Shown here: positions 1,096 to 19,116 of the stretch, piece by piece
Numbering within the stretch: the first letter of the stretch is position 1
Layout: each line of letters begins with the position of its first letter
Assembly (NCBI GenBank): GCA_014436445.1
Contig: GCA_014436445.1_4089.1
Source of the DNA: a phage
Reading direction: 5' to 3' (one strand)
Length of the DNA stretch: 26,673 bases
Notes under the pieces: generated by a model
Databases searched by the model: none
What the model was told of the DNA's origin: nothing
Seen by the model: the letters and a program-made list of their open reading frames with translations, nothing else
Made by a program: the position numbers and the translations under genes

Positions 1096-1118
1096 AGGAG
1101 GGAGAACCATTTCCCCCT
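1096..1118 (-). promoter_or_regulatory. conserved palindromic 5'-leader hairpin (representative of about 20 copies)
   Basis: GGAGGGAGAACCATTTCCCCCTC lies between the -10 element and the Shine-Dalgarno site; the same position holds GGGGAGAACTATTCTCCCC, GGGGAAACCGTTTCCCC and GCGGGAACTATTCCCGC variants elsewhere, with stem pairing preserved. Confidence 0.6.
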
Positions 1119-1130
1119 CTCTATGTAAAA

Positions 1131-1158
1131 CATTATACTTGATTCTAAGTACTATGCA
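1131..1158 (-). promoter_or_regulatory. sigma70-type promoter (TTGCAT, 16 nt, TATAAT), representative of the hairpin-leader class
   Basis: Minus-strand reading is TTGCAT AGTACTTAGAATCAAG TATAAT; the same architecture recurs upstream of most minus-strand genes in 1-18800. Confidence 0.6.
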
Positions 1159-1166
1159 AGTACTTT

Positions 1167-1493
1167 TTACATTTTAATTCCTGGATTCAGGTAGCGGTGA
1201 GATCCATATTCTGGATCGGTTTCGGTCCAGTACTGTAAATCTATAGTACCCTTTGCGTTAATCTTGTCTACCAGCTTATTCATCTTACTGTAGACTACTT
1301 CGCTAGGGATGTAGTGTAATCCTTTATTATAGAAGTAGTGGTTAGCTTCACTGTCATTTAAGATATAGCGTGCACCGTTTGCGGTTTGTGCAACGATGAA
1401 AGAGTATTCTACTTCCCGATCATTACCATCAACAGTAATGCGGTCGAAATTGGTACGGATGAAAGCTTTAACGATAGCGATTGAAGTACTCAT
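1167..1493 (-). CDS. hypothetical protein (108 aa)
   Basis: Track ORF; AGGAGA Shine-Dalgarno; upstream promoter TTGACA, 17 nt, AATAAT at about 1540-1570. Confidence 0.6.
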   Translation of the reverse strand: MSTSIAIVKAFIRTNFDRITVDGNDREVEYSFIVAQTANGARYILNDSEANHYFYNKGLHYIPSEVVYSKMNKLVDKINAKGTIDLQYWTETDPEYGSHRYLNPGIKM

Positions 1494-1593
1494 GGTGAAT
1501 CTCCTAACTTTGTGGGCCGTCGCACCATTGCCGCCCTACGAGATACATTATTGCAGTACTGATATACTTTGTCAATACTTTTTCCATTAAAAT

Positions 1594-1809
1594 TTATTTA
1601 CAGAACTGTAGCCCGACTGTGTTCGGATAGTACACACATCTTTCACGCTTACCGCTAAACGCAGATATCCAGGATAATTTGTATGCCACTGGCTCAGGTG
1701 CAAGAGGATTATTTGAATAATCGAGAACTTTAACAATTAAACGGTCCCCAACATACCAGCCAGTTGACTCTTTGATACGGTCGATAATTTCTTGTTTGGT
1801 TAACGCCAT
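1594..1809 (-). CDS. hypothetical small protein (71 aa)
   Basis: Track ORF 1594..1842 trimmed to the ATG at 1809 (MALTKQEII...); the promoter and leader at 1843-1900 are near-identical to those upstream of 1167..1493. Confidence 0.5.
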   Translation of the reverse strand: MALTKQEIIDRIKESTGWYVGDRLIVKVLDYSNNPLAPEPVAYKLSWISAFSGKRERCVYYPNTVGLQFCK

Positions 1810-2023
1810 TTTATATCTCGCTCTTTTGGAGGTGGGCTGCACTATTGCCGCCCTACGAGATACATTATCGCAGTACTGATATACTTTGTCAATACTTTTT
1901 TTGAAATAGTTTTGAGTACTGGCATTACATCCACCAGCAGATAGTTACTCACCGTTATTAACTATCTTATAGATACTTCTCTGCACCCTGTGGGCTAGTT
2001 TTTGTCTATGCGTATATAATAGC

Positions 2024-2056
2024 AAAGGGACTGACCGGAGTCAATCCCTTTTTTTT
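2024..2056 (-). terminator. intrinsic terminator hairpin that also contains a promoter -35 (composite repeat, copy 1 of 4)
   Basis: GGGACTGACCGGAGTCAATCCC stem-loop flanked by A and T runs directly after the stop of 2068..2268. On the minus strand the hairpin contains TTGACT, followed 17 nt later by TATTAT. Copies at 4283-4312, 7424-7453 and 11120-11148. Confidence 0.55.
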
Positions 2057-2067
2057 ATTCTTTTTTG

Positions 2068-2268
2068 TTAGATGATTCTCCAATCTTCTACCAGGATTTT
2101 AATATACCGTACCAGTGATTCGAGTGATTCCACTTCCCGATAATCGGTAGCCGTTTGCACGGAACAAGTACAGCCGATCAAGCCATTGCCAAGCTCTTTG
2201 ATCTGTACATCGATGCAGTTGGCTTTTGCTTCATTCAGTACTGCAACCAATTCGTTAGCGATTGACAT
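2068..2268 (-). CDS. hypothetical small protein (66 aa)
   Basis: Track ORF; AGGAG Shine-Dalgarno; leader hairpin and promoter at 2288-2340. Confidence 0.6.
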   Translation of the reverse strand: MSIANELVAVLNEAKANCIDVQIKELGNGLIGCTCSVQTATDYREVESLESLVRYIKILVEDWRII

Positions 2269-2356
2269 AATGTTTTACTCCTAAAGGTGCGGGAGAACTA
2301 TTCCCCCGCTCTATGTAAAACATTATACATTATCTTGTAGTACTGTCAAATAGTTT

Positions 2357-2614
2357 TTATGAGATATCTTCGATATAGTCGGCCCATGTCATTTGTTCAG
2401 TACTATCGAGTGCACCAGGATTATTTGGATCAAACCATTCGCCATCCCCTAAGTACATTGCAGCGGATACCGCTTTATAGCCATTATAGGCGTTATTCCA
2501 CTGCATAGCACGATAGATACGGCCTTTGATTGGTGTCTGTACTGGTAATGTTTTATGGTCTTCTACGTAGGCCATAGCTTGAGGATTTACCCGATATTGT
2601 GTGAACTGTTCCAT
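2357..2614 (-). CDS. hypothetical protein (85 aa)
   Basis: Track ORF; AAGGGGAAA Shine-Dalgarno; promoter TTGACA at about 2650-2680. Confidence 0.6.
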   Translation of the reverse strand: MEQFTQYRVNPQAMAYVEDHKTLPVQTPIKGRIYRAMQWNNAYNGYKAVSAAMYLGDGEWFDPNNPGALDSTEQMTWADYIEDIS

Positions 2615-2689
2615 TATGTTTCCCCTTGTAGTTAGTAAAGTTATTACATCAGTACTATCAAGCTATGTCAATAGTACTGAAATAAAACT

Positions 2690-2914
2690 TTAGATTAGAT
2701 TATTGATGCCGTTGATGGTAGACTCGCTTTCTTCTTTCTCCCATTGGCGGTAATACTTCCATGCTTCATGATAGGTGGCGATCAGTTCATCTTTTTGATC
2801 CTGAGTACATGCCAGTACTGAATCACTGTAAGCGGTGTTATAGATAGAATCAAATGATTTCTTCTCTTCTGCCAGGGTAGCTACTTCCCGCATCAGTTCA
2901 TCAAAGTTAGCCAT
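2690..2914 (-). CDS. hypothetical small protein (74 aa)
   Basis: Track ORF 2690..2959 trimmed to the ATG at 2914 (MANFDELM...); the longer form would read through the leader hairpin at 2931-2953. AAGGAG Shine-Dalgarno. Confidence 0.6.
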   Translation of the reverse strand: MANFDELMREVATLAEEKKSFDSIYNTAYSDSVLACTQDQKDELIATYHEAWKYYRQWEKEESESTINGINNLI

Positions 2915-2982
2915 TTTAGTACTCCTTATTAGTGGGGGAGGATATCTCCCCCTATGCAAAACATTATACTTTGTTTTAGTTA

Positions 2983-3246
2983 TTATGCAAGTACTTTTTT
3001 CATATAAACATTGTATTCTACACCGCCGTAACCTTCGCAGATGATATGTTTTGAGTTATCACGTTTGCACATCGTAAAGGCATCGTTGACGTGTTTTGCA
3101 TTTTCCAGGGCAACATCACCGATAGCGGCACATACTGAACTAATAACGATATTCCGCAAAGTACTGGTATCATTAGCGGTCATAGTAGTTTGCAGTACTA
3201 CGTTGTCGTATACGTGTGCATTGATAGTGATTTCGATAGTGTTCAT
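2983..3246 (-). CDS. hypothetical protein (87 aa)
   Basis: Track ORF; AGGAGA Shine-Dalgarno; hairpin leader and TTGCAT/TATAAT promoter at 3266-3330. Confidence 0.6.
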   Translation of the reverse strand: MNTIEITINAHVYDNVVLQTTMTANDTSTLRNIVISSVCAAIGDVALENAKHVNDAFTMCKRDNSKHIICEGYGGVEYNVYMKKVLA

Positions 3247-3334
3247 GGTGTATCTCCTGGACTTGAGGGGAAACCATTTCCCCCCTCTCGATATAAAACA
3301 TTATACGTTAATCTAACTACAATGCAAGTACTTT

Positions 3335-3526
3335 TTAAATTTTATTTCCGATATAGTCCGGCCTATTCTTTTCGGTCATACGCTTTGCTAATGTTTGCAT
3401 ATAGCTTATCGCGTTTAAGGTGTCTTCCTCCAGGGATGAATCAACATAATCAGGATCATTCTTCACCTTGCAATGATTATGATAGCGTAGTACTGCCAGT
3501 ACTTTTTTAACTTCTTCAACTGTCAT
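3335..3526 (-). CDS. hypothetical small protein (63 aa), overlaps the upstream stop by 4 nt
   Basis: Track ORF; start and stop overlap with 3523..3795 suggests translational coupling. Confidence 0.5.
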   Translation of the reverse strand: MTVEEVKKVLAVLRYHNHCKVKNDPDYVDSSLEEDTLNAISYMQTLAKRMTEKNRPDYIGNKI

Positions 3527-3795
3527 AATAAGTATTCCACTTCGTTAGCTTTCAGGTTAGTATCGATCATCAGTGGTTTTTTGTAGTCCACAAAACGATT
3601 AGTTTTCTCGATAGCGAAGCCCATATAATCCAGTTTGCTTACAGTACATTCATTCTTAAAAACTTCTTTCGCGGCATTGATGGCTGATTCAATTGATAAC
3701 CGCCCATCTAAATTAATGTTACCAAATGATCCACCAGCAGAAGTAGGATTACCGTTCATATCTTTAATAATCATAGTAGCGGAGTAGCTGGACAT
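3523..3795 (-). CDS. hypothetical protein (90 aa), first gene of a two-gene operon
   Basis: Track ORF; leader hairpin GGGGAGAACTATTCTCCCC and TTGACA/TATAAT promoter at 3816-3880. Confidence 0.6.
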   Translation of the reverse strand: MSSYSATMIIKDMNGNPTSAGGSFGNINLDGRLSIESAINAAKEVFKNECTVSKLDYMGFAIEKTNRFVDYKKPLMIDTNLKANEVEYLL

Positions 3796-3878
3796 AATTT
3801 TGTTTCCTTTTATTGTGGGGAGAACTATTCTCCCCTTGATGTAAACTATTATACAGTACTGATATACTTTGTCAATAC

Positions 3879-4100
3879 TTAATTACGTTTAAAATGATAT
3901 GTACCGTTATCATCCTGTACGCCCCATACTGATTTACCATCAACACCAGTGAAGCCGGATTGTAATTCAATATGGAAACCATTATTATCAACTACAAAAA
4001 CTTTTTTATTTTCATCCCGATAACATTGATATTCTGAATCAACATTAAAGGCCGCATCATTCAGAAGATTGGAAGCGTAAATGCAAGTCATTGTAGTCAT
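3879..4100 (-). CDS. hypothetical small protein (73 aa)
   Basis: Track ORF 3879..4175 trimmed to the ATG at 4100, which has an AAGGAA Shine-Dalgarno; the longer form overlaps the leader hairpin at 4118-4140. Confidence 0.55.
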   Translation of the reverse strand: MTTMTCIYASNLLNDAAFNVDSEYQCYRDENKKVFVVDNNGFHIELQSGFTGVDGKSVWGVQDDNGTYHFKRN

Positions 4101-4321
4101 GATTTTATTCCTTATTGCCAGGGAGAACCGTTTCCCCCTCTCGATATAAAACATTATACTTGATTCTAAGTACAATGCAAGTACTTTTTATCAAATAGTT
4201 TTCAGTACTGAATACTTATATAATATATACATTTATGCACCCTGTGGGTCAGTGAGCTATCTCTCAATGAATATATAATAGCAAAGGGACTGACCGGAGT
4301 CAATCCCTTTTTTAATCTTTT

Positions 4322-4906
4322 TTATCGTGTTATAGTTACGGCTTTTACATCACGCTTTTTATAGTACTGATTCCAGATATTGCGGGTTAAACCGTAATCA
4401 AGTACTTTAATAAGGCCGTTGCGATCCTGGCCGATATTCTGTTTTCTGATATCTCTTATCGTCAGTGTTGATAAGGTATCATCAACGTGTTGTAGTGCAT
4501 CAGCAAAGCGGTGCTGGCGTTCAATGGCATTACGTTTAATATTGTACTTTAATTCGTTGCACGCGTTAACGTGCTTTACACTGCCTTTACTTGCAGTACT
4601 CAACCGATCCATAACAATAAACATATTATCAGGATCGCTTAAATGCATATGCACTTTAGCGAAGAACTGTTTCAACTGAGGGCGGTCATAGTCTAAAAAA
4701 TTCCATACCCTACATTCTGTTTCATTTTGTTCTACACCCGCATCACAATTCGCGACCTTGATCACTAACCGATCATTTAAAGCGAATACAATACGGGAAG
4801 AACCCGCACCGATGATCTCCAGACCAGCTAACCGACAAGCTGAAAGGATCTCTTTGTTGGTTTCCATTTCTGACAGTGTACGGATGAATTTAGTATAATT
4901 ACGCAT
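4322..4906 (-). CDS. minimal protein-kinase-like protein (194 aa)
   Basis: Track ORF trimmed to the ATG at 4906 (AAGGAG Shine-Dalgarno). Motifs in order: glycine-rich loop IIGAGSSRIVF, beta3 lysine LVIKV, catalytic-loop-like IRDIRKQNIG (compare HRDLKPENI), DYG about 20 residues later (compare DFG). The protein ends soon after DYG. Confidence 0.55.
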   Translation of the reverse strand: MRNYTKFIRTLSEMETNKEILSACRLAGLEIIGAGSSRIVFALNDRLVIKVANCDAGVEQNETECRVWNFLDYDRPQLKQFFAKVHMHLSDPDNMFIVMDRLSTASKGSVKHVNACNELKYNIKRNAIERQHRFADALQHVDDTLSTLTIRDIRKQNIGQDRNGLIKVLDYGLTRNIWNQYYKKRDVKAVTITR

Positions 4907-4937
4907 TGTTTTATCTCCTTGAGTTAATGAAACTATA

Positions 4938-5180
4938 TTACAGTACTTTACTATCAATGGCAACTACTTTTTTAACACTTACAGCGTGAATCACTTCCTT
5001 AGTGTTTTTAGTACTGAATACTTTCGCTGTTCCTTGTTCTACTGCAATGCGATAACGACCGTTAACATCAACCATATTAATAAAGTCCGGTGTACTAAAC
5101 CGAGTAGTACGGCATTTCAGTACTGTTAACAGTTCCACCAGCGATGTAGTTTCTTTGATACGTTTTTCTAAAGTAATCAT
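4938..5180 (-). CDS. hypothetical protein (80 aa)
   Basis: Track ORF; second promoter class (TTGACAGTACTCAAATGTTTTAGTACTATG...) at 5195-5240, repeated at 5470-5520. Confidence 0.55.
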   Translation of the reverse strand: MITLEKRIKETTSLVELLTVLKCRTTRFSTPDFINMVDVNGRYRIAVEQGTAKVFSTKNTKEVIHAVSVKKVVAIDSKVL

Positions 5181-5238
5181 TTTGTTTTCCCCCGTGTTGG
5201 TATAGATACATAGTACTAAAACATTTGAGTACTGTCAA

Positions 5239-5457
5239 TTAGATAATATTATATTTCTTAAAATAAAATGCGTCCTGTGTTGGTTGATACTCGATACCGT
5301 TCCCGTTATTGACTTCAACTAATAAACCTTTGTCAATTAGTTTTTTAATAGTACGATACCCCTGTTGAAAATTGGTAAAATGTGAATCATTACGAAAGGT
5401 ATAACCGTGCTTAACTGCTTCATCAATAGTTTTCTTTTCGATTTTAGATAATTTCAT
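5239..5457 (-). CDS. hypothetical small protein (72 aa), possibly a winged-helix DNA-binding protein
   Basis: Track ORF trimmed to the ATG at 5457 (MKLSKIEKKTIDEAVKHGYTF...); the TIKKLIDKGLLVEV segment resembles a winged-helix recognition helix and wing. Weak. Confidence 0.45.
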   Translation of the reverse strand: MKLSKIEKKTIDEAVKHGYTFRNDSHFTNFQQGYRTIKKLIDKGLLVEVNNGNGIEYQPTQDAFYFKKYNII

Positions 5458-5513
5458 TTTGTTTCTCTCTCTGTGTTGGTATAGATACATAATACTAAAA
5501 CAATTGAGTACTG

Positions 5514-5768
5514 TCAACGTGATATTAGTTTTATTTTTTTATTGTATTGTTGGTGTTCATATAGATTAATTTTTCCAGTACTCTCGATCACTATTCTATT
5601 GTTAGTGTCTACGTCGATTACACGTAGTTTCCCGTTGCTTAACTTCCTAGGCAATAGACTACCATTAATAAACTCATTAGCAAGCTGTACGGCCTTTGTG
5701 ATGATTCTCTGTGGGGCTTTATAGTGTACCCGTAATACATTATCGTTTGATAGTTGAACCTTAATCAT
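5514..5768 (-). CDS. hypothetical protein (84 aa)
   Basis: Track ORF; preceded by the hairpin at 5783-5807. Confidence 0.5.
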   Translation of the reverse strand: MIKVQLSNDNVLRVHYKAPQRIITKAVQLANEFINGSLLPRKLSNGKLRVIDVDTNNRIVIESTGKINLYEHQQYNKKIKLISR

Positions 5769-5782
5769 TTTGTTTATCCTAT

Positions 5783-5807
5783 AAAAAAGGCGGGAACAGT
5801 TCCCGCC
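5783..5807 (-). terminator. intrinsic terminator or attenuator hairpin
   Basis: GGCGGGAACAGTTCCCGCC followed on the minus strand by TTTTTTAT, between the stop of 5831..6226 and the start of 5514..5768. Confidence 0.5.
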
Positions 5808-5830
5808 GTGTTGTTAGTACTGCAAAGTTA

Positions 5831-6649: not shown

Positions 6650-6736
6650 TTTAATTTCTCTCTTTTTGTTAGGAGGGGAACCATTCCCCTCACTTGATGT
6701 AAACTATTATACAGTACTAAGATACTTTGTCAATAC

Positions 6737-6871
6737 TTATTTGTTTTCTTTTCGTAATTTCTTTTCAGCTTCAACTACATTACGATTTGTGCAAACCACT
6801 TCATCGGATAAATCTAACTTCCAGCCAGCCAGGGGATTGGTTGCTTTTTTAGTGTTGTTTGCTGCTTTCAT
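6737..6871 (-). CDS. hypothetical small protein (44 aa; MKAANNTKKATNPLAGWKLDLSDEVVCTNRNVVEAEKKLRKENK)
   Basis: Not in the track (under 60 aa). Own promoter TTGACAATAGTTTTTAGTACTGTATAAT at 6890-6935 and an AAGGAAACATC Shine-Dalgarno before the ATG. Confidence 0.4.
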   Translation of the reverse strand: MKAANNTKKATNPLAGWKLDLSDEVVCTNRNVVEAEKKLRKENK

Positions 6872-6938
6872 GATGTTTCCTTATTAATTAAGATGTAAAC
6901 TATTATACAGTACTAAAAACTATTGTCAAACTATTTTA

Positions 6939-7139: not shown

Positions 7140-7205
7140 TTTGTATTCCTCTTTGTGGTTTATGTAAGTATTATACTCGTTTAATTTCTATTGTCAAACT
7201 ATTTT

Positions 7206-7281
7206 ATCAGGGGAGGTTTTCGTATGTCTTACTCCTGGACTACTTAACGGGGAGTTACTTGTTTCGTTCCCCGTCCTGATG
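7206..7281 (-). ncRNA. candidate structured RNA or leader element, copy 1 (copy 2 at 17522-17597)
   Basis: A ~76-nt element bounded by the inverted termini ATCAGG...CCTGAT, with an internal CGGGGA...TCCCCG stem, transcribed from the TTGCAT/TATAAT promoter at about 7283-7320. It differs from the 17522-17597 copy at only 4 positions. Confidence 0.35.
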
Positions 7282-7462
7282 TAAAACATTATACTTGATT
7301 CTAAGTACAATGCAAGTACTTTTTAAAAATAGTTTTCAGTACTTGATAGTACTAGCCACCAGCATATAATAGATACATTTATGCACCCTGTGGGCTGATT
7401 TGTTTCTATGCGTATATAATAGCAAAGGGACTGACCGGAGTCAATCCCTTTTTTAAATCTTT

Positions 7463-8101: not shown

Positions 8102-8186
8102 GTTTCTTTCCTCTTAGTGGGGAGAATCATTTCTCCCCTTCATGTAAACTATTATACAGTACTACGATGCTTTGTCAAATACTTTT

Positions 8187-8375: not shown

Positions 8376-8454
8376 TTGTCTTTCCTTGTAGTGGGGAGAA
8401 CTATTCTCCCCTTCATGTAAACTATTATACAGTACTTAAAACTAAATGCAAGTA

Positions 8455-8811: not shown

Positions 8812-8874
8812 GATTTCAATCCTCAGTTAAGATATAAAATATTATACACTAACTAACAGCACTGTCAATACTTT

Positions 8875-9908: not shown

Positions 9909-10007
9909 TTTATTTCTCTCTTAGGTTAAGTTAACTACTGTTGATAAAAGTTATTATACAGTACTATCAAACATTGTCAATAGATTTAATAGTACTGGTA
10001 ATATATT

Positions 10008-10491: not shown

Positions 10492-10586
10492 TTTGTTTTC
10501 TCTCTCTGTTAGTGGGGAGAACTATTCTCCCCTTGATGTAAACTATTATACAGTACTAAAAACTATTGTCAAACTATTTTTTAATA

Positions 10587-10928: not shown

Positions 10929-11157
10929 GATTCGTTTCCTTATTACCAGGGGAAACCGTTTCCCCTTGCGATGTAAAACATTATACGCCTATTGAGATAG
11001 TATGCAAGTACTTTTTATCAAATACTTTAAAATAGTTTTCTGTACTCAATCATTATACAATAGATACACTCCTGCACCCTGTGGGCTAGTGAGCTATCTC
11101 TCAATGAATATATAATAGCAAAATGGCTGACCGAAGTCAACCACTTTTTCATTTATT

Positions 11158-11286: not shown

Positions 11287-11376
11287 TTAAATCACCATAA
11301 AGAATAGATAGGTTACTAACAATGCCGCGATCAATGCACCGACCAGGGCCGAACTGTAATAAGCTAATGATTTCAT
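11287..11376 (-). CDS. 29-aa hydrophobic peptide (MKSLAYYSSALVGALIAALLVTYLFFMVI), predicted membrane peptide
   Basis: Not in the track. ATGA overlap with the upstream gene; continuous hydrophobic stretch; stop abuts the next ATG. Confidence 0.4.
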   Translation of the reverse strand: MKSLAYYSSALVGALIAALLVTYLFFMVI

Positions 11377-11525
11377 TTTTTAGCCTGAAAGTAATGTTTA
11401 ATTTGTGCGGCGGTCAGTGCACAATTACGCAGGAAGTTTTCTGTATAACTCCTACGAGTACTGAAAGAAAATTGACCTTTGCCGTTGCCGATAGTAACAT
11501 CAAACCGAGCGTTGTATTGTTTCAT
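11373..11525 (-). CDS. hypothetical small protein (50 aa)
   Basis: Track ORF 11373..11555 trimmed to the ATG at 11525 (AGGAG Shine-Dalgarno) downstream of the leader hairpin at 11543-11565. Confidence 0.5.
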   Translation of the reverse strand: MKQYNARFDVTIGNGKGQFSFSTRRSYTENFLRNCALTAAQIKHYFQAKK

Positions 11526-11608
11526 TTTGATTCTCCTAGTATCGGGGAGAACCATTCCCCCCCCCTCTATGTAAACAATTATACAGTACTGAAAACTAAT
11601 TGCAAGTA

Positions 11609-11851
11609 TTATTTTAAACTTTGTGCGACTAATTTCGCACGGTCAATCATATACTGCCATTTTTGGATCTCTTCTGGCAGAAAACGATATTCACCAATCA
11701 CAATAGTGATACACTTTTCAGCCTGGTCAATGTATGTAGTATCAATCTCAACCTGAACGGGTACACGTTCGCCGTATTCAGTACCAGGGACAATGCAATC
11801 ATTATCATAAGTAACCGTAAGTGCGGTATCTTTAATTAAAATAGTTTCCAT
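11609..11851 (-). CDS. hypothetical protein (80 aa)
   Basis: Track ORF 11609..11902 trimmed to the ATG at 11851 (GAGGAAAG Shine-Dalgarno); leader hairpin GCGGGAACTATTCCCGC at 11870-11888. Confidence 0.55.
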   Translation of the reverse strand: METILIKDTALTVTYDNDCIVPGTEYGERVPVQVEIDTTYIDQAEKCITIVIGEYRFLPEEIQKWQYMIDRAKLVAQSLK

Positions 11852-11919
11852 TATTCTTTCCTCGTTATAGGCGGGAACTATTCCCGCTCTCGATGTAAAC
11901 AATTATACAGTACTAAAAA

Positions 11920-12129
11920 CTAATTGCAAGTATTATTTTCTAAAAAATGTTTGTATGCTTCATCAACCACTCTTTCGATAACATACGCTAACGGCACGTA
12001 TCCAACTACATGACTACAATAAAAAGGACTACGATTAGAATCATCGTATGCAAATACTTTTTCAGGATCTGCATCAATCACATACATATTAACCTTTAAG
12101 ATGTCGATCTTATCCTGTACAGTAAGCAT
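11920..12129 (-). CDS. hypothetical small protein (69 aa)
   Basis: Track ORF 11920..12207 trimmed to the ATG at 12129, one nucleotide after the stop of 12131..12301 (coupled). Confidence 0.45.
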   Translation of the reverse strand: MLTVQDKIDILKVNMYVIDADPEKVFAYDDSNRSPFYCSHVVGYVPLAYVIERVVDEAYKHFLENNTCN

Positions 12130-13047: not shown

Positions 13048-13138
13048 TTTTTGTTTCCTCTTAGTTGTCTTGATAAAATCTATTATGCCAGTACTATCAA
13101 ACTATGTCAATAGTACTGTGATAATAATTTTACTTACT
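13042..13138. repeat. ~96-bp direct repeat, copy A (copy B at 13337-13432)
   Basis: Near-identical promoter, leader and first-codon cassette (CCATTTTTTGTTTCCTCTTAGTTGTCTTGATAAAATCTATTATGCCAGTACTATCAA...) flanking gene 13130..13342; the copies differ only at about 2-3 positions. Confidence 0.7.
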
Positions 13139-13342: not shown

Positions 13343-13423
13343 TTTTGTTTCCTCTTAGTTGTCTTGATAAAATCTATTATGCCAGTACTATCAATCTATG
13401 TCAATAGTACTGTGATAATAATT

Positions 13424-13567
13424 TTACTTACTTTTTGCTTTCTTTATTGCTTCCACCTGGTCGGCCCACTCTTTACCCCATACTTGAGCGTTATAGTGAT
13501 ACTGACAAAGAGCAACGCCCCGTTTCAAACCAGTGATAGATTTTTTACCACATTGACAAGTTTTCAT
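13424..13567 (-). CDS. hypothetical small Cys/His-containing protein (47 aa; MKTCQCGKKSITGLKRGVALCQYHYNAQVWGKEWADQVEAIKKAKSK)
   Basis: Not in the track. GAGGA Shine-Dalgarno; leader hairpin and TTGCAA/TATAAT promoter at 13585-13650; CxC...CxxH could bind a metal. Confidence 0.4.
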   Translation of the reverse strand: MKTCQCGKKSITGLKRGVALCQYHYNAQVWGKEWADQVEAIKKAKSK

Positions 13568-13652
13568 ATTAGTTTCCTCATTATCAGGGAGAACCATTTC
13601 TCCCCTTGATGTAATGTATTATACTTTATCTGATTTACTTTGCAAGTACTTT

Positions 13653-13950: not shown

Positions 13951-14103
13951 TTAAAGTTTATCAATGATTGATGCCGTTTCATTGATAGTCTTGCCGTGTT
14001 TTGCACACGCAATAACTGCTTTAAATTCCTTTGATGACCAATCTTTCTTGCTGCATACTGACATTACTTGTAACGTGAAACAATCCAGTTCATAAGTATT
14101 CAT
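13951..14103 (-). CDS. hypothetical small protein (50 aa)
   Basis: Not in the track. GAGGA Shine-Dalgarno; TTGCAC/TATAAT promoter at 14140-14190. Confidence 0.4.
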   Translation of the reverse strand: MNTYELDCFTLQVMSVCSKKDWSSKEFKAVIACAKHGKTINETASIIDKL

Positions 14104-14330
14104 CTTTATATCCTCAGTTAGTTAAGGTGTTTCGCCTTGATGTAAAACATTATACGCTAATCTCTGAATCGTGCAAGTACTTTTTATTACTTTTTGCAAA
14201 ATACTTTAAACGCTCTAAATCGCATTCTAACGACCTTAACTCCACCAGCTAGGGCGATGCATCAGATAATCAGTTTAATGCGTTAGAATCGATTCTATGA
14301 GGTGCTGACGGCATGGAATACTATAGACAC

Positions 14331-14355
14331 AAAAAAGCCCACTGTATAAGTGGGC
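14331..14355 (-). terminator. intrinsic terminator
   Basis: GCCCACTTATACAGTGGGC stem followed by TTTTTT on the minus strand, directly after the stop of 14378..14860. Confidence 0.6.
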
Positions 14356-14377
14356 TAGTGATTCAGTACTTTAATTG

Positions 14378-14860
14378 TTATGCTTCAACTTTGCGGTGAG
14401 CTTCGATCCATTCCTCGCGAGTCATACCGCTTTCTTTGATTGCATCCAGTACTACCGCAATGCAGTTACCGCGTACAGGAATCAAATGTTCTTCCCCGTT
14501 ATCAAGGACAACCGTAACACGTTCTTGAATCCATTTTTTAGGCTTAGATTCCGGCTTATCTTCACCGTACTTAACCGCCAGGGCTTTATGTGCCATTTCA
14601 ATCACCACTTCCAGATCTAAACCAGACACCGCCGCCTGAATACTTTCTATTGTTGCTTGCAGTTCTGCTTCACGGGCTTTTTTCTGTTCTTCCAGTTCTG
14701 CTACCTTTTTGGCTTGTAGTTCTTTCGCTTCACTGTAAGCAATGTTAAAATTGTTGCGTACTGCTTTCATGGTATCATTATCCAGGTCAGCCAGCAATTC
14801 AGCAGCAATAACAGTATCGTTAGAAATCAGTGCTTTCAGAAATGATTTTACATTAGCCAT
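14378..14860 (-). CDS. hypothetical protein with a central coiled-coil-like segment (160 aa)
   Basis: Track ORF trimmed to the ATG at 14860 (GAGGA Shine-Dalgarno); the central KELQAKKVAELEEQKKAREAELQATIESIQ segment is heptad-like; promoter TTGACA, 16 nt, TAGAAT at about 14965-15000. Confidence 0.6.
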   Translation of the reverse strand: MANVKSFLKALISNDTVIAAELLADLDNDTMKAVRNNFNIAYSEAKELQAKKVAELEEQKKAREAELQATIESIQAAVSGLDLEVVIEMAHKALAVKYGEDKPESKPKKWIQERVTVVLDNGEEHLIPVRGNCIAVVLDAIKESGMTREEWIEAHRKVEA

Positions 14861-15055
14861 TTTATAAATCCTCAATTAAAGTTTAAGTTAGTGTATCAAA
14901 GTTTTATTGACGTGTCCAGTTTTTCATTCGACTTACTGGCGGTCTACTTAGTGTTCCCCGTCTTGATGTAATACATTCTACGCTTTTCCCTGGTAATGTC
15001 AACTACTTTTTTAAAACTATTTTCAAAGTATACCAGTACTACAATACTACAAAAA

Positions 15056-15082
15056 CAAAAAAGCCCACTGCTTATAGTGGGC
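15056..15082 (-). terminator. intrinsic terminator
   Basis: GCCCACTATAAGCAGTGGGC stem followed by a T-run on the minus strand after the stop of 15104..15403. Confidence 0.6.
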
Positions 15083-15103
15083 TAGTGATTCAGTACTGAT
15101 GTA

Positions 15104-15403
15104 TTATAGACAGTTAATTACACCTGTGTGCGTTACTTTCTCCGTATCCATTACAGTGACAGAACCACGTTTAGCACTGGCATCATAATAAATTGTTGTG
15201 CTACCTTTATCATCTTCTTCATGGAACGGGCCATTTTTAAATGCTTCCGGCTGCAATTCCAGATCCTTTAAAACAATCTCGCCAGTACTTTCATCTGTCA
15301 TTGCTACGGTGCACTGAATGAATTTATCACCAGGTACATCTAACGACGCATTAACAGCGAAAGAGGAAACAGATAAAGCCAGGGCGATGATTGCAACTTT
15401 CAT
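15104..15403 (-). CDS. small secreted or periplasmic protein with a Sec signal peptide (99 aa)
   Basis: N-terminus MKVAIIALALSVSSFAVNA-S has a basic n-region, hydrophobic core and AxA-like cleavage site; two Cys in the mature part; leader hairpin and promoter at 15420-15480. Confidence 0.6.
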   Translation of the reverse strand: MKVAIIALALSVSSFAVNASLDVPGDKFIQCTVAMTDESTGEIVLKDLELQPEAFKNGPFHEEDDKGSTTIYYDASAKRGSVTVMDTEKVTHTGVINCL

Positions 15404-15516
15404 TTGATTATCCTTAGTTACCAGGGGAAACCGTTTCCCCGTGCGATGTAAAACATTATACGCGTTTAAAAACTATTATCAAGTACTTTAATATAAAAGT
15501 ATTTGAAAAAAAAGTC

Positions 15517-15545
15517 TTGACAACTGCATCCAGTACTGGCATAAT
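15517..15545 (+). promoter_or_regulatory. plus-strand sigma70-type promoter (TTGACA, 17 nt, CATAAT)
   Basis: Consensus -35, 17-nt spacer and CATAAT -10; no plus-strand ORF follows, only the CCCACAGGGTGCA leader motif and a hairpin. Confidence 0.5.
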
Positions 15546-15551
15546 ACTTAC

Positions 15552-15650
15552 ATAAAGACGAGATAGTCACTAACCCACAGGGTGCATAGATCCGTCTATT
15601 AAATGATTCAGTACAAAAAATATAAAGGGGATCAATTGATCCCCCTGGTT
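15552..15650 (+). ncRNA. candidate ~100-nt small RNA
   Basis: Predicted transcript from the 15517-15545 promoter, containing GAGATAGTCACTAACCCACAGGGTGCA and ending at the palindromic hairpin GGGGATCAATTGATCCCCC (15627-15645), which also terminates minus gene 15652..15873. Confidence 0.3.
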
Positions 15651-15651
15651 A

Positions 15652-15873
15652 TTACTTAGTAAGATATAAACAGAAGTCACCTTTATTTGCTACGCCGCCA
15701 GTGTAACGCGATGAATAGTTAGAAACGTCCTGGACTTCTGCTATTACCAGTGTATCATCATTCAATTCGTCGCAGAAGCAAACGGCTGGATCTTTTACGC
15801 CGATATTGTCGGCATGTTCCCGCATAGATTTAACCAGTGCTTCAAGTTGGGAAAGAGTAGTGATATTAGCCAT
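15652..15873 (-). CDS. hypothetical protein (73 aa)
   Basis: Track ORF 15652..15903 trimmed to the ATG at 15873 (GAGGAAAA Shine-Dalgarno) downstream of the leader hairpin at 15885-15906. Confidence 0.55.
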   Translation of the reverse strand: MANITTLSQLEALVKSMREHADNIGVKDPAVCFCDELNDDTLVIAEVQDVSNYSSRYTGGVANKGDFCLYLTK

Positions 15874-15958
15874 TTTATTTTCCTCATTACCAGGGAGAAC
15901 CATTTCCCCCTTGATGTAAACTATTATACAGTACTAAAAACTAATTGCAAGTACTTTT

Positions 15959-16162
15959 TTAATTTAATTGCTTTAAAACATACTCAAAGACACCACGCAC
16001 ATCATTGATCATCGCCTGGCGGTTAGCAGGTAACGCATCAGGATCGCCACTATCCCAGGCATTGATAAAACTCCCCAAATCATGATAGATTTTATTCTGT
16101 AAGCCGATCAACTGCAATTCTTTTTCTTCAAGCTCTTTGATACGTTCAATTAAATCACTCAT
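15959..16162 (-). CDS. hypothetical small protein (67 aa)
   Basis: Track ORF 15959..16198 trimmed to the ATG at 16162 (AAGGA Shine-Dalgarno), 17 nt after the stop of 16180..16461. Confidence 0.5.
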   Translation of the reverse strand: MSDLIERIKELEEKELQLIGLQNKIYHDLGSFINAWDSGDPDALPANRQAMINDVRGVFEYVLKQLN

Positions 16163-16179
16163 TATATAATCCTTAGTAC

Positions 16180-16461
16180 TTAATTGTAAGATCCGCAACG
16201 GTCGCAGTAGTGCCCCTCGTCATCGTCAACGAATTGACCAACGAAATTATCTACTTTCGCTTTCAGGTTATTATAATCGTTTTCTACTTCCTTTAAACGC
16301 TTCTGGTAGTATTCCAGTGCTTTAAGATATGCCGCATCAGTAGTTTTCTCCTGCATAGCTAAATTCATGCCACGCGTTTCATCGTACAGCCAAAAACCAT
16401 CGGTGCACTCACTTATAGACAATGACTTGCTTAACACATTGTACTTTATTACTTTACTCAT
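16180..16461 (-). CDS. hypothetical protein (93 aa)
   Basis: Track ORF; GAGGA Shine-Dalgarno; leader hairpin GCGGGAACTATTCCCGC and TTGCAA/TATAAT promoter at 16480-16545. Confidence 0.6.
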   Translation of the reverse strand: MSKVIKYNVLSKSLSISECTDGFWLYDETRGMNLAMQEKTTDAAYLKALEYYQKRLKEVENDYNNLKAKVDNFVGQFVDDDEGHYCDRCGSYN

Positions 16462-16546
16462 TAGATAATCCTCAGTAAAGGCGGGAACTATTCCCGCTCT
16501 CGATATAAAGTATTATACGTTAATCTAATTACTTTGCAAGTACTTT

Positions 16547-16783
16547 TTAGTGCTTTTTATAAAACATCTCAGCGGTAATATCTTTACCCGTTGGCTGTAC
16601 TTTATCCAGGATCTTTTGGTGTGCACTACGCCCGAAAGAATAAGAACCGTAAACCGTTAGCCAGTAGTCGCCATTTTGGTTTACATGTACCGCACAATAG
16701 GGAACGCCCCGCGAATCGTCACCAATGAAGTGTGATACTGTACCCGTTACGTTTGGCGTTGTAGTTTTGATTTGTTCGATCAT
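16547..16783 (-). CDS. hypothetical protein (78 aa)
   Basis: Track ORF 16547..16816 trimmed to the ATG at 16783 (AGGAG Shine-Dalgarno); the hairpin GGCGGGAACCATTCCCCGCC at 16806-16825 precedes it without a separate promoter. Confidence 0.55.
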   Translation of the reverse strand: MIEQIKTTTPNVTGTVSHFIGDDSRGVPYCAVHVNQNGDYWLTVYGSYSFGRSAHQKILDKVQPTGKDITAEMFYKKH

Positions 16784-16826
16784 TTCTCTTACTCCTGGGA
16801 TATAGGCGGGAACCATTCCCCGCCAG

Positions 16827-16844
16827 TGATTCAGTACTGAATTA
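16827..16844. promoter_or_regulatory. near-perfect copy of the 18-bp palindrome TGATTCAGTACTGAATCA (candidate operator)
   Basis: TGATTCAGTACTGAATTA here; full or half copies also at 14359, 15087, 15604, 18961, 19257, 20103, 20138 and 20381. Confidence 0.4.
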
Positions 16845-17453
16845 ATATGCGATAGATTCTACTACACCATCGATAACATTAAATTGATATTCGTTACCCT
16901 CAATCAGTCCTACAATGTTTTCAGTAGTAAACTGGTCTTCATAAGCATTTTCTAAATCACGGTACAACTTACGAGATAATTCACGGATCGTCTCAGTCAG
17001 TAAGTTTTCCAGATCCTCAGCCAATGCCGCCTGTTTTACAGTTAAATCAGTGTAGCGAGTATCAACGCAACCGCCTACCGTGTTTTCGTGTGCATAACGC
17101 GATTGGGAACGTTCTACACTCATTTCTAAATCATCTACGTTCAACAGGTGACGGATAGTGCGATACTTAGTTAACGCCTTAACCTTGCGTAAAAACTTCT
17201 CAGCGTCAACGTGGTCAGTACTGATTGATGCACCGTCACCTTGCGACCAAAAACCACTGTATTGCAATTCAGCTTCATCTATGCCGTATTCTGGCAGTAC
17301 TGTTTCTTTATAGTATTCCAGTACTGACTCAGCAAAGAAATTATCCTCACTTGCACGTTCCCGATCCCGAACCAGTTCGATAGCCGCCGTTTGTTGTTCT
17401 GCGTTCAGTTCAGAAAAAGCCATAACAAAAGTAGTAGTAGTGATAGTTTTCAT
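16842..17453 (-). CDS. hypothetical protein (203 aa)
   Basis: Track ORF; GAGGGT Shine-Dalgarno; tandem promoter module at 17455-17650 duplicated from 7140-7330. Confidence 0.65.
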   Translation of the reverse strand: MKTITTTTFVMAFSELNAEQQTAAIELVRDRERASEDNFFAESVLEYYKETVLPEYGIDEAELQYSGFWSQGDGASISTDHVDAEKFLRKVKALTKYRTIRHLLNVDDLEMSVERSQSRYAHENTVGGCVDTRYTDLTVKQAALAEDLENLLTETIRELSRKLYRDLENAYEDQFTTENIVGLIEGNEYQFNVIDGVVESIAY

Positions 17454-17521
17454 TTTGTAACCCTCATTCAGTGGTTGATGTAAGTATTATACTTGTTTAC
17501 TTTCTATTGTCAAACTATTTT

Positions 17522-17597
17522 ATCAGGGGAGTTTTTCGTAAGTCTTACTCCTGGACTACTTAACAGGGAGTTACTTATTTCGTTCCCCGTCCTGATG
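17522..17597 (-). ncRNA. candidate structured RNA or leader element, copy 2
   Basis: Differs from the 7206-7281 copy at only 4 positions; same flanking promoters. Confidence 0.35.
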
Positions 17598-17752
17598 TAA
17601 AACATTATACGCCTTTAAACATAGTTGGCAAGTACTTTTTGAAAATAGTTTTTAGTACTTTCATATAGATACACTCCCGCACCCTATGGGCTATCGCCTA
17701 GTGTCCGGCTTGTAAGTATTATCTCACTAAGCCGGATAACTGTCAAGTACTT

Positions 17753-18019
17753 TTATTCAAGTACTGCAATCTTTTTAGTACTGTACACAGTAACGCGGTT
17801 GCCCTTGCGGTCGTGCTTTATTTCTACCACGCGACGCGATACACTATCAGGACGCTTTAAAGCAGATAGCCAGTACTGAATTGATCGGGCTGTACTTTGC
17901 TTTACTACGGCCCAACGTTTACCACGTTCAGATTGTACGCCCATATCTTTAAACGTCGCCCCGTCCTGGCGTGCGGCAATCCGAGCAAGTTCACGCGTTG
18001 CAAAGTATATAATATTCAT
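17753..18019 (-). CDS. hypothetical protein (88 aa), paralog of 5831..6226
   Basis: Track ORF 17753..18073 trimmed to the ATG at 18019 (MNIIYFATRELARIAAR...); promoter region paralogous to the one upstream of 5831..6226. Confidence 0.55.
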   Translation of the reverse strand: MNIIYFATRELARIAARQDGATFKDMGVQSERGKRWAVVKQSTARSIQYWLSALKRPDSVSRRVVEIKHDRKGNRVTVYSTKKIAVLE

Positions 18020-18101
18020 GCTGTTACCCCTATCGTTGTTGTATAAAAGAAATCTATTATAAAGTACTATCACCGTGCAATAGTACTTTTAATCTATTCT
18101 C

Positions 18102-18341
18102 TTACATTCCAACCATCGCCGCACGGATCGCAGTAGTGCTATACTTAAAGCCGTCCGGTGTTTTATCTTGTCCAGTCTGTTCTAAAAATAGCATCATATG
18201 ACGGGCCGCATCATTACGATTAGTGTTAGCGGCAATAAAGTCCTGGGCCAACCGGTATAATGATTCGTCGTTATTAATCCAAAGGCTTACATTCCATTGA
18301 GTTTTGTTTTTGTGTCCTAAGAACATTTTTGATTTAGCCAT
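18102..18341 (-). CDS. hypothetical protein (79 aa)
   Basis: Track ORF; AAGAGGA Shine-Dalgarno; leader hairpin GTGGGGAACTATTCCCCAC and TTGCAA/TATAAT promoter at 18362-18430. Confidence 0.6.
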   Translation of the reverse strand: MAKSKMFLGHKNKTQWNVSLWINNDESLYRLAQDFIAANTNRNDAARHMMLFLEQTGQDKTPDGFKYSTTAIRAAMVGM

Positions 18342-18435
18342 TTTTAAATCCTCTTAATTATAGTGGGGAACTATTCCCCACCTGATGTAAAGTATTATAC
18401 GCTTTTAAACTTAGTTTGCAAGTACTTTATTAAAC

Positions 18436-18798
18436 TTATTCGTAAATCTTGCCACTGTCAGCCCATACCAGGAAACGAGGCATATTATCCCATGCATCTT
18501 GTTTTAAGTTTAAGCCGTGCAATACTTCTGTACTTTCCATTCCTGGTACTGGCTTGCTATACACTGCAAACATTTCGCCCATGTACTGATAAGCCATCGT
18601 TAAATCAGTCTGGATCATCTTATGGATCATTGCATCCAGCATTGCAGTAGCGGCGTACTGTTCACGCTTAAGCGGCAACATTGCAATCAATTCCCGATAA
18701 GCTGCAATGTGAATCCGTACAGTCTCAGCGGGAAGATCTTTCATCTCTTCACGGAAAGAAACCAGGTTAAGCATGATAGTATTGATTTTAGTAGCCAT
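18436..18798 (-). CDS. hypothetical protein (120 aa)
   Basis: Track ORF; leader hairpin CGGGAGCGTCTCCCCCG and TTGCAA promoter at 18826-18890. Confidence 0.6.
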   Translation of the reverse strand: MATKINTIMLNLVSFREEMKDLPAETVRIHIAAYRELIAMLPLKREQYAATAMLDAMIHKMIQTDLTMAYQYMGEMFAVYSKPVPGMESTEVLHGLNLKQDAWDNMPRFLVWADSGKIYE

Positions 18799-19116
18799 CG
18801 TTTTAATCTCTTTTAAAAGTGAGTCGGGAGCGTCTCCCCCGTCTCGATGTAAAACATTCTACACCTTTCCCAATACTTTGCAAGTACTTTCTACAAATAC
18901 TTTTAAAATAGTTTTCTTTCTATATAGGAGTACTGGAACAATCCAGGGAGAACAATCTTTCAGTACTGAATCATTAAGATACCCGTAAAACGGCCTCAAT
19001 CGCATTCTAACGCATTAATACACCTAAGCTATACATTTGCACCGCCACCAGCTAACCAGGGCTTTACGGGCCGTTTAAACGCGTTAAATTATTTTCAATT
19101 ATTTTGTTTTTAGCTA

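Follow-up and report, generated by a model that had tools for sequence, protein, structure and literature searches.

Among described elements, the closest to those studied here are the promoter-early stem-loops (PeSLs) of T4-like phages, known from RB49/phi1, PST/T4 and nt-1/KVP40. They are found on either side of ORFans and bring about modular shuffling (Arbiol et al. 2010, PMC2839356; Comeau et al. 2014, PMC4122927). We analyzed a stretch of phage DNA of 26,673 nucleotides (nt; contig GCA_014436445.1_4089.1, hereafter the window), which represents the immediate-early cluster of a jumbo coliphage of the Asteriusvirus type, with 121Q, PBECO4 and G17 as relatives, and which harbors a family of short hairpins in early-gene leaders, between promoter and ribosome-binding site. 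The likeness to PeSLs is extensive. Both are repeated composites of ~100 base pairs (bp), with an AT-rich upstream element, a strong sigma-70-like early promoter, a G-tract/C-tract stem-loop and a Shine-Dalgarno (SD) sequence followed by ATG; G.T pairs have been noted in PeSL stems too, and both cluster among small genes of unknown function and coincide with boundaries of insertions, deletions and replacements. Hallmarks of PeSLs found in the window are a repeated strong promoter, an adjacent stable G/C stem-loop (dG -10 to -16) and a plastic small-ORFan region; a stem-loop upstream of the cassette's start (in the AT-rich region, over the -35, between -35 and -10, over the -10 or directly ahead of +1), where it acts on incoming transcription only, is another hallmark and is not found, as judged from the predicted +1 site. 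Excised mini-circles, formed by recombination between cassettes, are a further PeSL trait. In the RB49 genome, which we checked, the stem-loops lie between -35 and -10 (TTGACAGGGGATC...GATCCCCTATAAT) or carry the -10 in the loop, and those of PST and nt-1 precede the promoter (PMC4122927). The PeSL stem-loop is outside its cassette's own transcript and is read as a terminator of upstream transcription, whereas the hairpins in the window all follow the predicted start, inside the cassette's own 5' untranslated region (UTR), and have no U-tract. Since they are part of the transcript, their regulatory logic differs from that of PeSLs. The phages differ as well, PeSLs being found in T4-like phages and the window type in Asteriusvirus jumbo phages, Stephanstirmvirinae and Vequintavirinae.

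As for hairpins that are part of the message, mRNA decay in E. coli commonly begins with RppH, followed by 5'-end-dependent attack by RNase E. The ompA and papA mRNAs are stabilized by a 5'-terminal stem-loop, which blocks 5'-end-dependent RNase E (Emory 1992, Bouvet and Belasco 1992, Arnold 1998, via PMC3997798). Like ompA hp1 and the papA hairpin, those in the window are short and stable, are predicted to lie a few nt from the 5' end and upstream of an accessible ribosome-binding site, and belong to highly expressed genes. However, ompA and papA are single-gene, experimentally proven cases, while the window contains a multi-copy family known from sequence, whose predicted tail of 3-8 nt is at the upper limit for protection. 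The leader stem-loop of T7 gene 10 is a comparable stable 5' hairpin. T4 mRNAs reportedly carry stable intercistronic C(UUCG)G hairpins, as Tuerk et al. 1988 are said to have described. These are similar to promoter-less copies of the window's hairpin in being short, very stable, located between genes and upstream of a ribosome-binding site, but the loops in the window are neither UUCG-type nor conserved, and most copies are tied to a promoter. In the searchable literature, we found no account of hairpins in such leaders, be it for Asteriusvirus, rV5-like or phi92-like phages. Promoters and terminators are listed for rV5 (PMC3606486), CBB (PMC5259590) and PA5oct (PMC7318152), with no leader hairpins mentioned. 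As a concept, the leader hairpin combines two known kinds of element, PeSL cassettes and 5' stabilizer hairpins.

The promoters in question form a well-defined family. With up to two mismatches, the motif ATGTAAAMWATTATAC has 25 matches in the window, all on the plus strand, versus 0.38 expected, which bears out the conserved stretch reported at these promoters in the initial annotation. When read on the coding (minus) strand, this motif is GTATAAT-NGTTTACAT, i.e., a sigma-70 -10 box followed by a conserved start region. A TTGACA or TTGCA at -35 (AAAAAGTACTTGCA/TTGACA) is found 16-17 nt 5' of the -10, preceded by an A-rich upstream element that holds AAAGTACT. Twelve copies match the sigma-70 consensus TTGACA/TATAAT at 12 of 12 positions, and looser matching brings the family to about 29 promoters in the window. 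In 121Q, whose whole genome was assembled (348,532 bp), the motif occurs 25 times on the plus strand, always within 135.8-154.8 kb. The T5 promoter PN25 (GTATAATAGATTCAT) resembles the motif, and its start 7-8 nt after the -10 was taken as our model; under this rule, the predicted +1 falls on the A (or C) of ACAT.

Nineteen of these ~29 promoters are followed by a compact hairpin, the whole set spanning 1098-18841. The initial annotation had proposed a family of about 20 palindromic hairpins at 1096-18842, which is what we find when a promoter-less copy is added to the 19; its view that most early genes carry one holds for these 19 promoters and fails for about ten family promoters without a hairpin. 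The stem is 7-9 bp long (6 in one case) and the loop 3-5 nt, with a 5' arm that is G-rich and purine-only and a 3' arm that is C/T-rich, typical arms being GGGGAGAA/TTCTCCCC. In plus-strand coordinates, the hairpin sits left of the motif. It is the minimum free energy (MFE) structure in 19/19 leaders, at -10.1 to -15.9 kcal/mol, and fold z-scores against dinucleotide shuffles are negative in 19/19 (-0.6 to -4.2, mean -2.07); single z-scores are modest because such shuffles retain the G and C runs, so that only the consistency over all leaders is informative. The core stem begins 11-16 nt past the -10 hexamer, which is 3-8 nt past the predicted +1 (median 5), and with the flanking pairs of the MFE folds, 0-5 nt (median 3) are left single-stranded at the 5' end. 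The hairpin thus occupies about +4 to +27 of the predicted mRNA, with the SD 6-10 nt past the stem and the ATG 17-26 nt past it (median 19), both SD and AUG being unpaired in 19/19 MFE folds.

Pairing within these stems is maintained by compensated changes, as the initial annotation had claimed. Whole alignment was unusable for pair counts, since MAFFT run on 68 variants put gaps 5' and not in the loops. Pairs were therefore counted in 29 distinct variants with a 3-nt loop, and in a loop-anchored alignment of the 68 variants. In the 29 variants, 96% of cells are paired, a figure that is partly circular because variants were picked for stem formation; this does not apply to double-sided changes, which affect 7/8 stem pairs in 33 cells. 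The covariation score is 0.50, versus 0.22 when shuffled (0/500 reach it) and ≤0.18 when the partner is slid by 1-3 columns. The loop-anchored alignment gives a like signal at positions 1-8 and none at 9-10.

The pairing is also strand-specific. We collected 95 unique leaders from the window, 121Q, G17, JP4, EJP2 and IMG/VR fragments (for the latter a pattern scan yielding 9 loci from 4-5 contigs, which supplies extra variants and is not a broad survey), and reduced them to 33 distinct stems, penalizing G.T and A.C equally. Counted on the sense strand, pairs inside the stems that depart from Watson-Crick are 17 G.T, 0 A.C and 3 other. Since a sense G.T is a G.U in the message and a C.A in the antisense, and a double-stranded protein site would not distinguish the two, this asymmetry points to the RNA level. 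Similarly, a covariance model built from the 29 variants matches 121Q at 137.5-155 kb, plus three weak matches at ordinary terminators and nowhere else, with sense scores consistently above antisense ones, e.g., 31.6 versus 20.4 bits. In 121Q, GC-rich hairpins with a purine 5' arm are confined to the early cluster and are promoter-linked in 13/13 cases.

These data bear on whether the palindrome is a DNA operator, on which a dimeric repressor just past the start would block early promoters, as at lac O1 at +11. The position is the classical one for a roadblock, with the palindrome centered near +15, i.e., within the 10-20 bp past the start seen in operators of the lac O1 type. However, unlike in these operators, arm spacing varies between 3 and 5 bp around a free center (tag, tgg, cgg, tac, cac, gag, ctc, atgg, atga, acgg, aaac, atatc, acaac), arm changes are compensated and not conserved, G.T pairs, which would be mismatched half-sites in DNA, are tolerated on one strand only, and promoter-less copies stand before ribosome-binding sites. 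We therefore consider an operator highly improbable. The initial annotation had left the choice between selection on structure and on a dimer-binding site; it is the former that stands, on the sense-strand RNA, and the latter that does not, given the spacing of 3-5 nt and the free loop. Pairing is selected in the sense-strand RNA, and the hairpin is tied to early promoters yet separable from them and not terminator-like. It is likely that the hairpin is a selected RNA element of the 5' UTR.

Orthologues strengthen this view. In 40 cassette pairs (window versus 121Q, JP4, G17 and EJP2), divergence is 10.0% in the upstream element, 7.7% in the spacer, 9.0% in the unpaired 5' tail, 10.1% in the linker plus SD and 11.2% at third codon positions, versus 2.5% in the -35 hexamer and 0.8% in the -10 hexamer. 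The hairpin is lost in 0/40 pairs: 23 are identical, and the 17 that have changed all keep at least 6 bp. Changes include substitutions in the loop, an outermost pair lost or gained, G-C to G.U (10971 versus 121Q, by a C-to-T change in the 121Q orthologue of cassette 10948-11007), G.U to G-C (13609 versus 121Q) and, in JP4, a one-base insertion (15914) by which a stem of 7 bp with a G.U becomes a perfect one of 8 bp. At 15446, a compensated A-U to G-C change distinguishes JP4, whose orthologue of the cassette at 15424 reads GGGGGAG cgg TTCCCCC. In other cases (3291, 8415, 15914 and 18847), the whole hairpin has been exchanged for another family variant. Because orthologues keep their pairing through such changes, we conclude that there is both selection for an RNA helix and exchange of cassettes.

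Exchange is also visible in the mosaic of homology with the window's relatives. The Asteriusvirus jumbo coliphages 121Q, PBECO4, G17, phAPEC6 and JP4 are 90-95% identical to the window over 43-82% of its length. Of 142 homology-block ends with four relatives, 51 fall inside cassette spans, versus 14% expected, an enrichment that is inflated by paralogous matches. Among the main collinear-block boundaries with 121Q, 8/10 lie at cassettes (2999, 3291, 6745, 6892, 11615, 11866, 13064 and about 17659). The hairpin might then be a passenger of a mobile cassette, without function of its own here, kept by recombination or gene conversion of the promoter-leader unit and perhaps a relic of a terminator that once stood before the promoter. 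Besides the homology blocks that break at cassettes, the swaps of family variants at orthologous sites, the near-identical cassettes in unrelated phages and the presence in the family of a real terminator (5789-5807) would all fit. Yet pairing is kept while adjacent leader bases diverge by 9-10%, G.U pairs are tolerated and A.C pairs are not, and four phage lineages hold stems of entirely different sequence at the same position, which makes a mere passenger improbable.

The 19 cassettes are all on the minus strand. The one at 1098-1159 has its -35 at 1154-1159, its -10 (TATAAT) at 1132-1137 and its predicted +1 at 1124, followed by hairpin 1098-1119 (GAGGGGGAA atgg TTCTCCCTC, one internal G.U, dG -15.9), SD AAGGAG and ATG at 1077. 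The typical arms with loop tag recur at 3817-3875 (TTGACA-16-TATAAT; hairpin 3817-3835, GGGGAGAA tag TTCTCCCC, z -4.2; ATG 3795), 8393-8451 (hairpin 8393-8411; ATG 8375) and 10514-10572 (hairpin 10514-10532; ATG 10491), and with loop atga at 8119-8178 (hairpin 8119-8138; ATG 8101). One of these arms is shared by cassettes 11544-11605 (hairpin 11544-11562, GGGGGGAA tgg TTCTCCCC, G.U; ATG 11525), which abuts the boundary at 11615, and 13586-13645 (hairpin 13586-13605, GGGGAGAA atgg TTCTCCCT, terminal G.U; ATG 13567). The arms AGGGGGAA/TTCTCCCT, with a G.U, are found at 4120-4180 with loop acgg (hairpin 4120-4139; ATG 4100) and at 15892-15950 with loop atgg (hairpin 15892-15911; probable ATG 15873). 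GCGGGAA tag TTCCCGC forms the hairpins of cassettes 11871-11929 (hairpin 11871-11887; ATG 11851), at the boundary 11866, and 16481-16539 (hairpin 16481-16497; ATG 16461). The remaining ones are 2289-2349 (TTGACA-16-TATAAT; hairpin 2289-2309, GCGGGGGAA tag TTCTCCCGC, G.U; ATG 2268), 2934-2990 (hairpin 2934-2952, GGGGGAG atatc CTCCCCC; ATG 2914), 3265-3327 (hairpin 3265-3285, GGGGGGAAA tgg TTTCCCCTC; ATG 3246), which has another family variant in its G17 and JP4 orthologues, 6673-6733 (hairpin 6673-6691, GAGGGGAA tgg TTCCCCTC; ATG 6649), near the 121Q boundary at 6745, 10948-11007 (hairpin 10948-10966, AGGGGAAA cgg TTTCCCCT; ATG 10928), 15424-15482 (hairpin 15424-15440, GGGGAAA cgg TTTCCCC; ATG 15403), 18362-18421 (hairpin 18362-18382, GGTGGGGAA tag TTCCCCACT; ATG 18341) and 18825-18883 (-10 TAGAAT; hairpin 18825-18841, CGGGGG agacg CTCCCG; ATG 18798). 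The four variants that had originally been quoted are all among them, GGGGAGAACTATTCTCCCC at 3817-3835, 8393-8411 and 10514-10532, GGGGAAACCGTTTCCCC at 15424-15440, GCGGGAACTATTCCCGC at 11871-11887 and 16481-16497, and GGGGGAGGATATCTCCCCC at 2934-2952.

The promoter-less copy, also on the minus strand, is located at 16805-16824 (GGCGGGGA atgg TTCCCGCC, dG -16.7) and is followed by 8 nt, AGGAG and an ATG at 16783. It lies 17 nt past the stop codon of the upstream gene (16842) and 21 nt before the SD-preceded ATG. The hairpin is therefore separable from its promoter, as first proposed from this copy, and the same is seen in other phages (see below).

Conversely, about ten family promoters lack the family hairpin (6893, 8832, 9944, 13073, 13367, 14140, 14966 and 20088, plus 7279 and 17595, which have a 75-nt leader). 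They include those at 6893-6929, with a short leader, at 8832-8868 and 9944-9980, at 13073-13110 and 13367-13404, these two with CATAAT, and at 14140-14176, which has only a weak leader stem of 4-5 bp; all are on the minus strand. At 7202-7315 (minus strand), a family promoter is followed by a different, conserved and structured leader of 75 nt, which runs into a second promoter; a second copy of this leader is found behind the family promoter at 17518-17631 (minus strand), and a degenerate third copy near 14900-15002. The 75-nt leader folds into a structure closed by an AUCAGG...CCUGAU helix (dG about -20, z about -2.2), and its second promoter is TTGACA-16-TATAAT with a short leader without hairpin, making these tandem promoters. 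This leader might be a small RNA or a regulatory leader. The promoters also contain the palindrome AGTACT (AAAGTACTTGCA at -35, AGTACTGTATAAT before the -10), which belongs as well to CAGTACTGA repeats. It occurs 153 times in the 26.7-kb window, within and between genes, versus 9.1 +/- 2.8 expected, and is the commonest palindromic hexamer of 121Q (903 versus about 118 expected), where it is densest, at 65 per 10 kb, in the early cluster. Finally, a DNA hairpin promoter of the N4 type was considered and rejected, since the hairpins always come with sigma-70 promoters and the early promoters of these phages are of the host type.

Given their resemblance to PeSLs, the hairpins could be attenuators or terminators, which would stop or dampen transcription from upstream promoters, and perhaps from their own, so as to limit its build-up along an array of strong promoters. 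When a G(n)-loop-C(n) stem-loop of RB49/phi1 was inserted between lacZ and a strong promoter, expression fell as much as with rrnB T1 (PMC2839356), and the stems in the window are likewise made of a G-tract and a C-tract. A close relative of the family at 5789-5807 (minus strand), with the stem-loop GGCGGGAA ctg TTCCCGCC and TTTTTT directly after it, is a bona fide terminator, is marked as such in the G17 annotation, and shows what form a terminating copy takes. The leader hairpins lack this form. They have no U-tract, with 1-4 U in the 8 nt past the stem, and a terminator scan flags only 1/19 of them (18841-18825), marginally, the other 18 failing. Canonical U-tract terminators are found nearby, at 2024-2051, 4283-4310, 7424-7451, 11120-11147, 5789-5807, 14336-14356, 15062-15083 and 15625-15646, which indicates that termination in this phage relies on another design. 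The G17 annotation (ARNOLD) marks canonical terminator sites and none of the leader hairpins. Moreover, a terminator downstream of its own start would also silence the gene it belongs to. In phage Paula, equivalent elements have been labelled terminators by an automated annotation, but on the strand opposite to the genes. Termination of antisense transcripts is unlikely, since each internal G.U would there be a C.A mismatch. An intrinsic terminator was rejected for either strand, and an attenuator of the PeSL type is, in our judgment, unlikely.

The window does contain another class of composite, separate from the leader hairpins. The four terminators at 2024-2051, 4283-4310, 7424-7451 and 11120-11147 share a 12-bp hairpin, AAAGGGATTGACtccgGTCAGTCCCTTT, with TTGACT in the stem and a T-tract followed by GCTATTATAT. 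In all four, a promoter-like site, TTGACT-17-TATTAT, overlaps the terminator, which is the composite type of the RB49 PeSLs. Similar terminator/promoter composites are found in Yersinia phage fHe-Yen9-03 and Salmonella phage Munch.

We favor the reading that the main role of the hairpin is to stabilize the message or to provide a processing boundary, with a probability of roughly 0.45. Function is here deduced from position and from the rules of E. coli mRNA decay, and the start site, the stabilizing effect and the role in recombination are all inferred. Each cassette has the order AT-rich upstream element, near-consensus sigma-70 promoter, start region (GTTTTACAT), G-rich stem-loop, A-rich linker of ~8 nt, SD and ATG. 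The stem-loop would be transcribed and form at the extreme 5' end of messages made from the cassette's own promoter, where it would hinder RppH and 5'-end-dependent decay by RNase E, while leaving the ribosome-binding site single-stranded. In read-through and intercistronic contexts, it could act as a stability or processing boundary; promoter-less copies could do the same job once a polycistronic RNA has been processed, or could shield the 3' end of the upstream cistron. The cassette may in addition serve as a recombination point for gene shuffling, since the same ~100 bp are repeated before many genes. In 121Q, gene 205 is annotated (annotation only) as a T7 gp0.7-like kinase acting negatively on RNase E. 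A role as RNase III site was rejected, the stems being far too short.

Several observations weigh against stabilization or processing as the main role. With +1 at the A of CAT, 3-8 nt are unpaired before the core stem, and the helix reaches the 5' end in some leaders only. Work on ompA reportedly puts the limit for protection at a single-stranded 5' tail of 2-4 nt, and the tails of the hairpins are at or above it. About one third of the family promoters work without a hairpin, as do most in an Eneladusvirus relative, so the hairpin is dispensable. In every case, it is the 5' arm that is rich in purines and SD-like, and the reverse arrangement never occurs; this polarity is unexplained by pure structure and may be due to common ancestry, to constraints on the initially transcribed sequence or to a sequence-specific partner. 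As regards the supporting numbers, a single inherited site (GGGGGAA/TTCTCCC) accounts for many of the 17 G.T pairs, leaving about 8-9 independent cases; in three other lineages, G.T versus A.C is uninformative, at 1-3 versus 2; and the breakpoint enrichment is, as said, raised by matches between paralogous cassettes. Finally, the spacing to the SD is as tight as that to +1, which fits a translational role equally well.

Such a role would be that of a translation-initiation module, in which the hairpin shields the ribosome-binding site against sequence further upstream, or sequesters the SD-like tract of its own 5' arm and the AUG of its loop, thereby keeping the true SD free on any transcript. 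Here, the distance from stem to ATG (17-26 nt, median 19, in the window; ~21 nt in the promoter-less copy; 17-25 nt in other lineages), the unpaired SD and AUG in every MFE fold, and the hairpin-SD-ATG geometry kept by promoter-less intercistronic copies would all be accounted for. The 5' arm does resemble an SD and several loops do hold an ATG, by which gene callers have been fooled. However, transcripts from the cassette's own promoter have only ~5 nt upstream of the hairpin, which leaves little to insulate against, and family leaders without a hairpin have equally good SD regions. As the constant spacing may also reflect shared descent of the whole cassette, we view a primarily translational function as rather unlikely. 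As for gene calling, the first ATG of minus-strand open reading frames (ORFs) 676-1110, 11373-11555, 13424-13597 and 15652-15903 is in a hairpin loop (aATGg), in frame with an SD-preceded ATG 30-33 nt downstream. Two database models, G17_00615 and 121Q gene 317 (435 nt), begin at the loop ATG. Because the 5' arm of the hairpin is SD-like, these are probably false N-terminal extensions of 10-11 codons.

The same arrangement is found outside Asteriusvirus. In a comparison sample of five genomes, taken fully or partly, plus IMG/VR fragments, early-gene arrays of Justusliebigvirus Paula, Phapecoctavirus tuntematon and the Vequintavirinae phage LTH01 show a sigma-70 promoter, 8-10 nt, a GC hairpin, an A-rich linker, SD and ATG, the hairpin starting about 3-4 nt past the predicted start site. 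Examples are GGGCGGCA atgg TGCCGCC, GGCGGGAA tag TTCCCGCC and GGGGAGAA tag TTCTCCCC. A GC hairpin is present at -62 to -12 of 42/87 gene starts in these three lineages, versus 5-8% of random positions, at 17-25 nt from the ATG. Several promoter-less copies, in the order stop codon-hairpin-SD-ATG, also occur in Paula, tuntematon and LTH01. The window's 16503 cassette (16481-16539) has a nearly identical counterpart in Paula, and megablast matches of 46 nt at 93.5% identity link promoters across genera. The terminators that the Paula record (LR865361.1, 30075-42118) places at its leader hairpins, on the strand without genes, are an artefact of automated prediction. The Eneladusvirus relative fHe-Yen9-03 has the same promoter mostly without hairpin, and once with an unrelated stem (GGTAAGC/GCTTACC), while Salmonella phage Munch is mixed. 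Since each occurs without the other, promoter and hairpin are separable modules.

A hairpin with such a distribution might be a regulon tag, recognized by a phage or host RNA-binding protein or nuclease that would coordinately shut off or protect the immediate-early messages, in the manner of T4 RegA and RegB. In T4, early mRNAs are inactivated by a dedicated nuclease acting at GGAG (PMC3014915), and the hairpin is restricted to one temporal gene class and, in 121Q, to one 19-kb cluster, with a conserved polarity (purine 5' arm, AA or AG next to the loop) that exceeds structural need. Against this, both sequence and length of the loop are free, and stems differ widely between lineages (GGGGAGAA, GCGGGAA, GGCGGCA), so that we hold such a tag to be doubtful at best. 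A broader version, to which we give long odds, is that the promoter-hairpin-SD unit is a horizontally exchanged cassette of at least four unrelated lineages of large virulent coliphages, its hairpin being an RNA mark read by a dedicated factor (e.g., a nuclease or repressor shutting off immediate-early messages) or a shield against host RNA-targeting defense or decay. If this were true, the hairpin would define a post-transcriptional regulon and not be a generic stabilizer.

The genetic setting of the cassettes is that of an early region. All plausible genes of the window are on the minus strand and are small (about 45-200 codons), with small hypothetical proteins encoded across the cassette region. 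The counterpart in 121Q is genes 249-320, at 131-156 kb, nearly all of which encode hypothetical proteins. A tRNA scan of the window found none. In a scan of the whole window against Rfam, with E-values up to 1, the leader hairpins matched no curated family, the sole match being a sub-threshold Trp_leader on the terminator at 14329-14393. Small early genes (17103-17342, 11710-11990, 2340-2530 and others) have nucleotide matches of 80-90% in rV5-like, phAPEC8-like and phi92-like phages, including records labelled Campylobacter phage, which argues for an exchange of early genes across phage families. In the JP4 record, part of the early cluster is present twice, at 1-3.7 kb and 20.1-23.8 kb, and the cluster is found at the record ends in several other records (among G17, CRJP21, WPEC5 and Turkey5). 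This suggests that the early cluster is in or next to a terminal repeat, and hence that it may be the first DNA to enter the cell.

Two neighboring regions stand apart from the cassettes. At 20744-24218 (minus strand), about fifteen ORFs, each of some 60 codons, follow one another in tandem, corresponding to 121Q genes 249-265, with a GC skew opposite to that of the remaining window and no family promoters between the ORFs. Next to it, 19300-20740 is a stretch of 1.4 kb without plausible genes, whose 121Q equivalent (135.2-137.2 kb) has no annotated coding sequence. The family promoter found here (20088-20124) has a leader hairpin of another kind, with 10 bp. Roughly twelve CAGTACTGA motifs are also present, as are repeats resembling iterons (GATGGCT, GACGGCTAAA) at ~19590-19720. 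The stretch could be an origin, a region related to the terminus or a locus for a non-coding RNA.

Together, these findings show how a jumbo phage wires about twenty host-takeover genes, each with its own near-consensus promoter and a standard structured leader, and not as a long operon. They extend the PeSL idea, i.e., regulatory cassettes doubling as recombination joints, beyond T4-like phages and to a stem-loop within the message. There are consequences for annotation as well, since hairpins have been called terminators on the wrong strand, and an SD-like arm followed by a loop ATG leads to false N-terminal extensions. The cassettes are compact and, with their strength predicted from promoter sequence, very strong natural expression units. 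As the layout is common to Asteriusvirus, Justusliebigvirus, Phapecoctavirus and Vequintavirinae, it points to a shared solution or to cassette exchange among coliphages.

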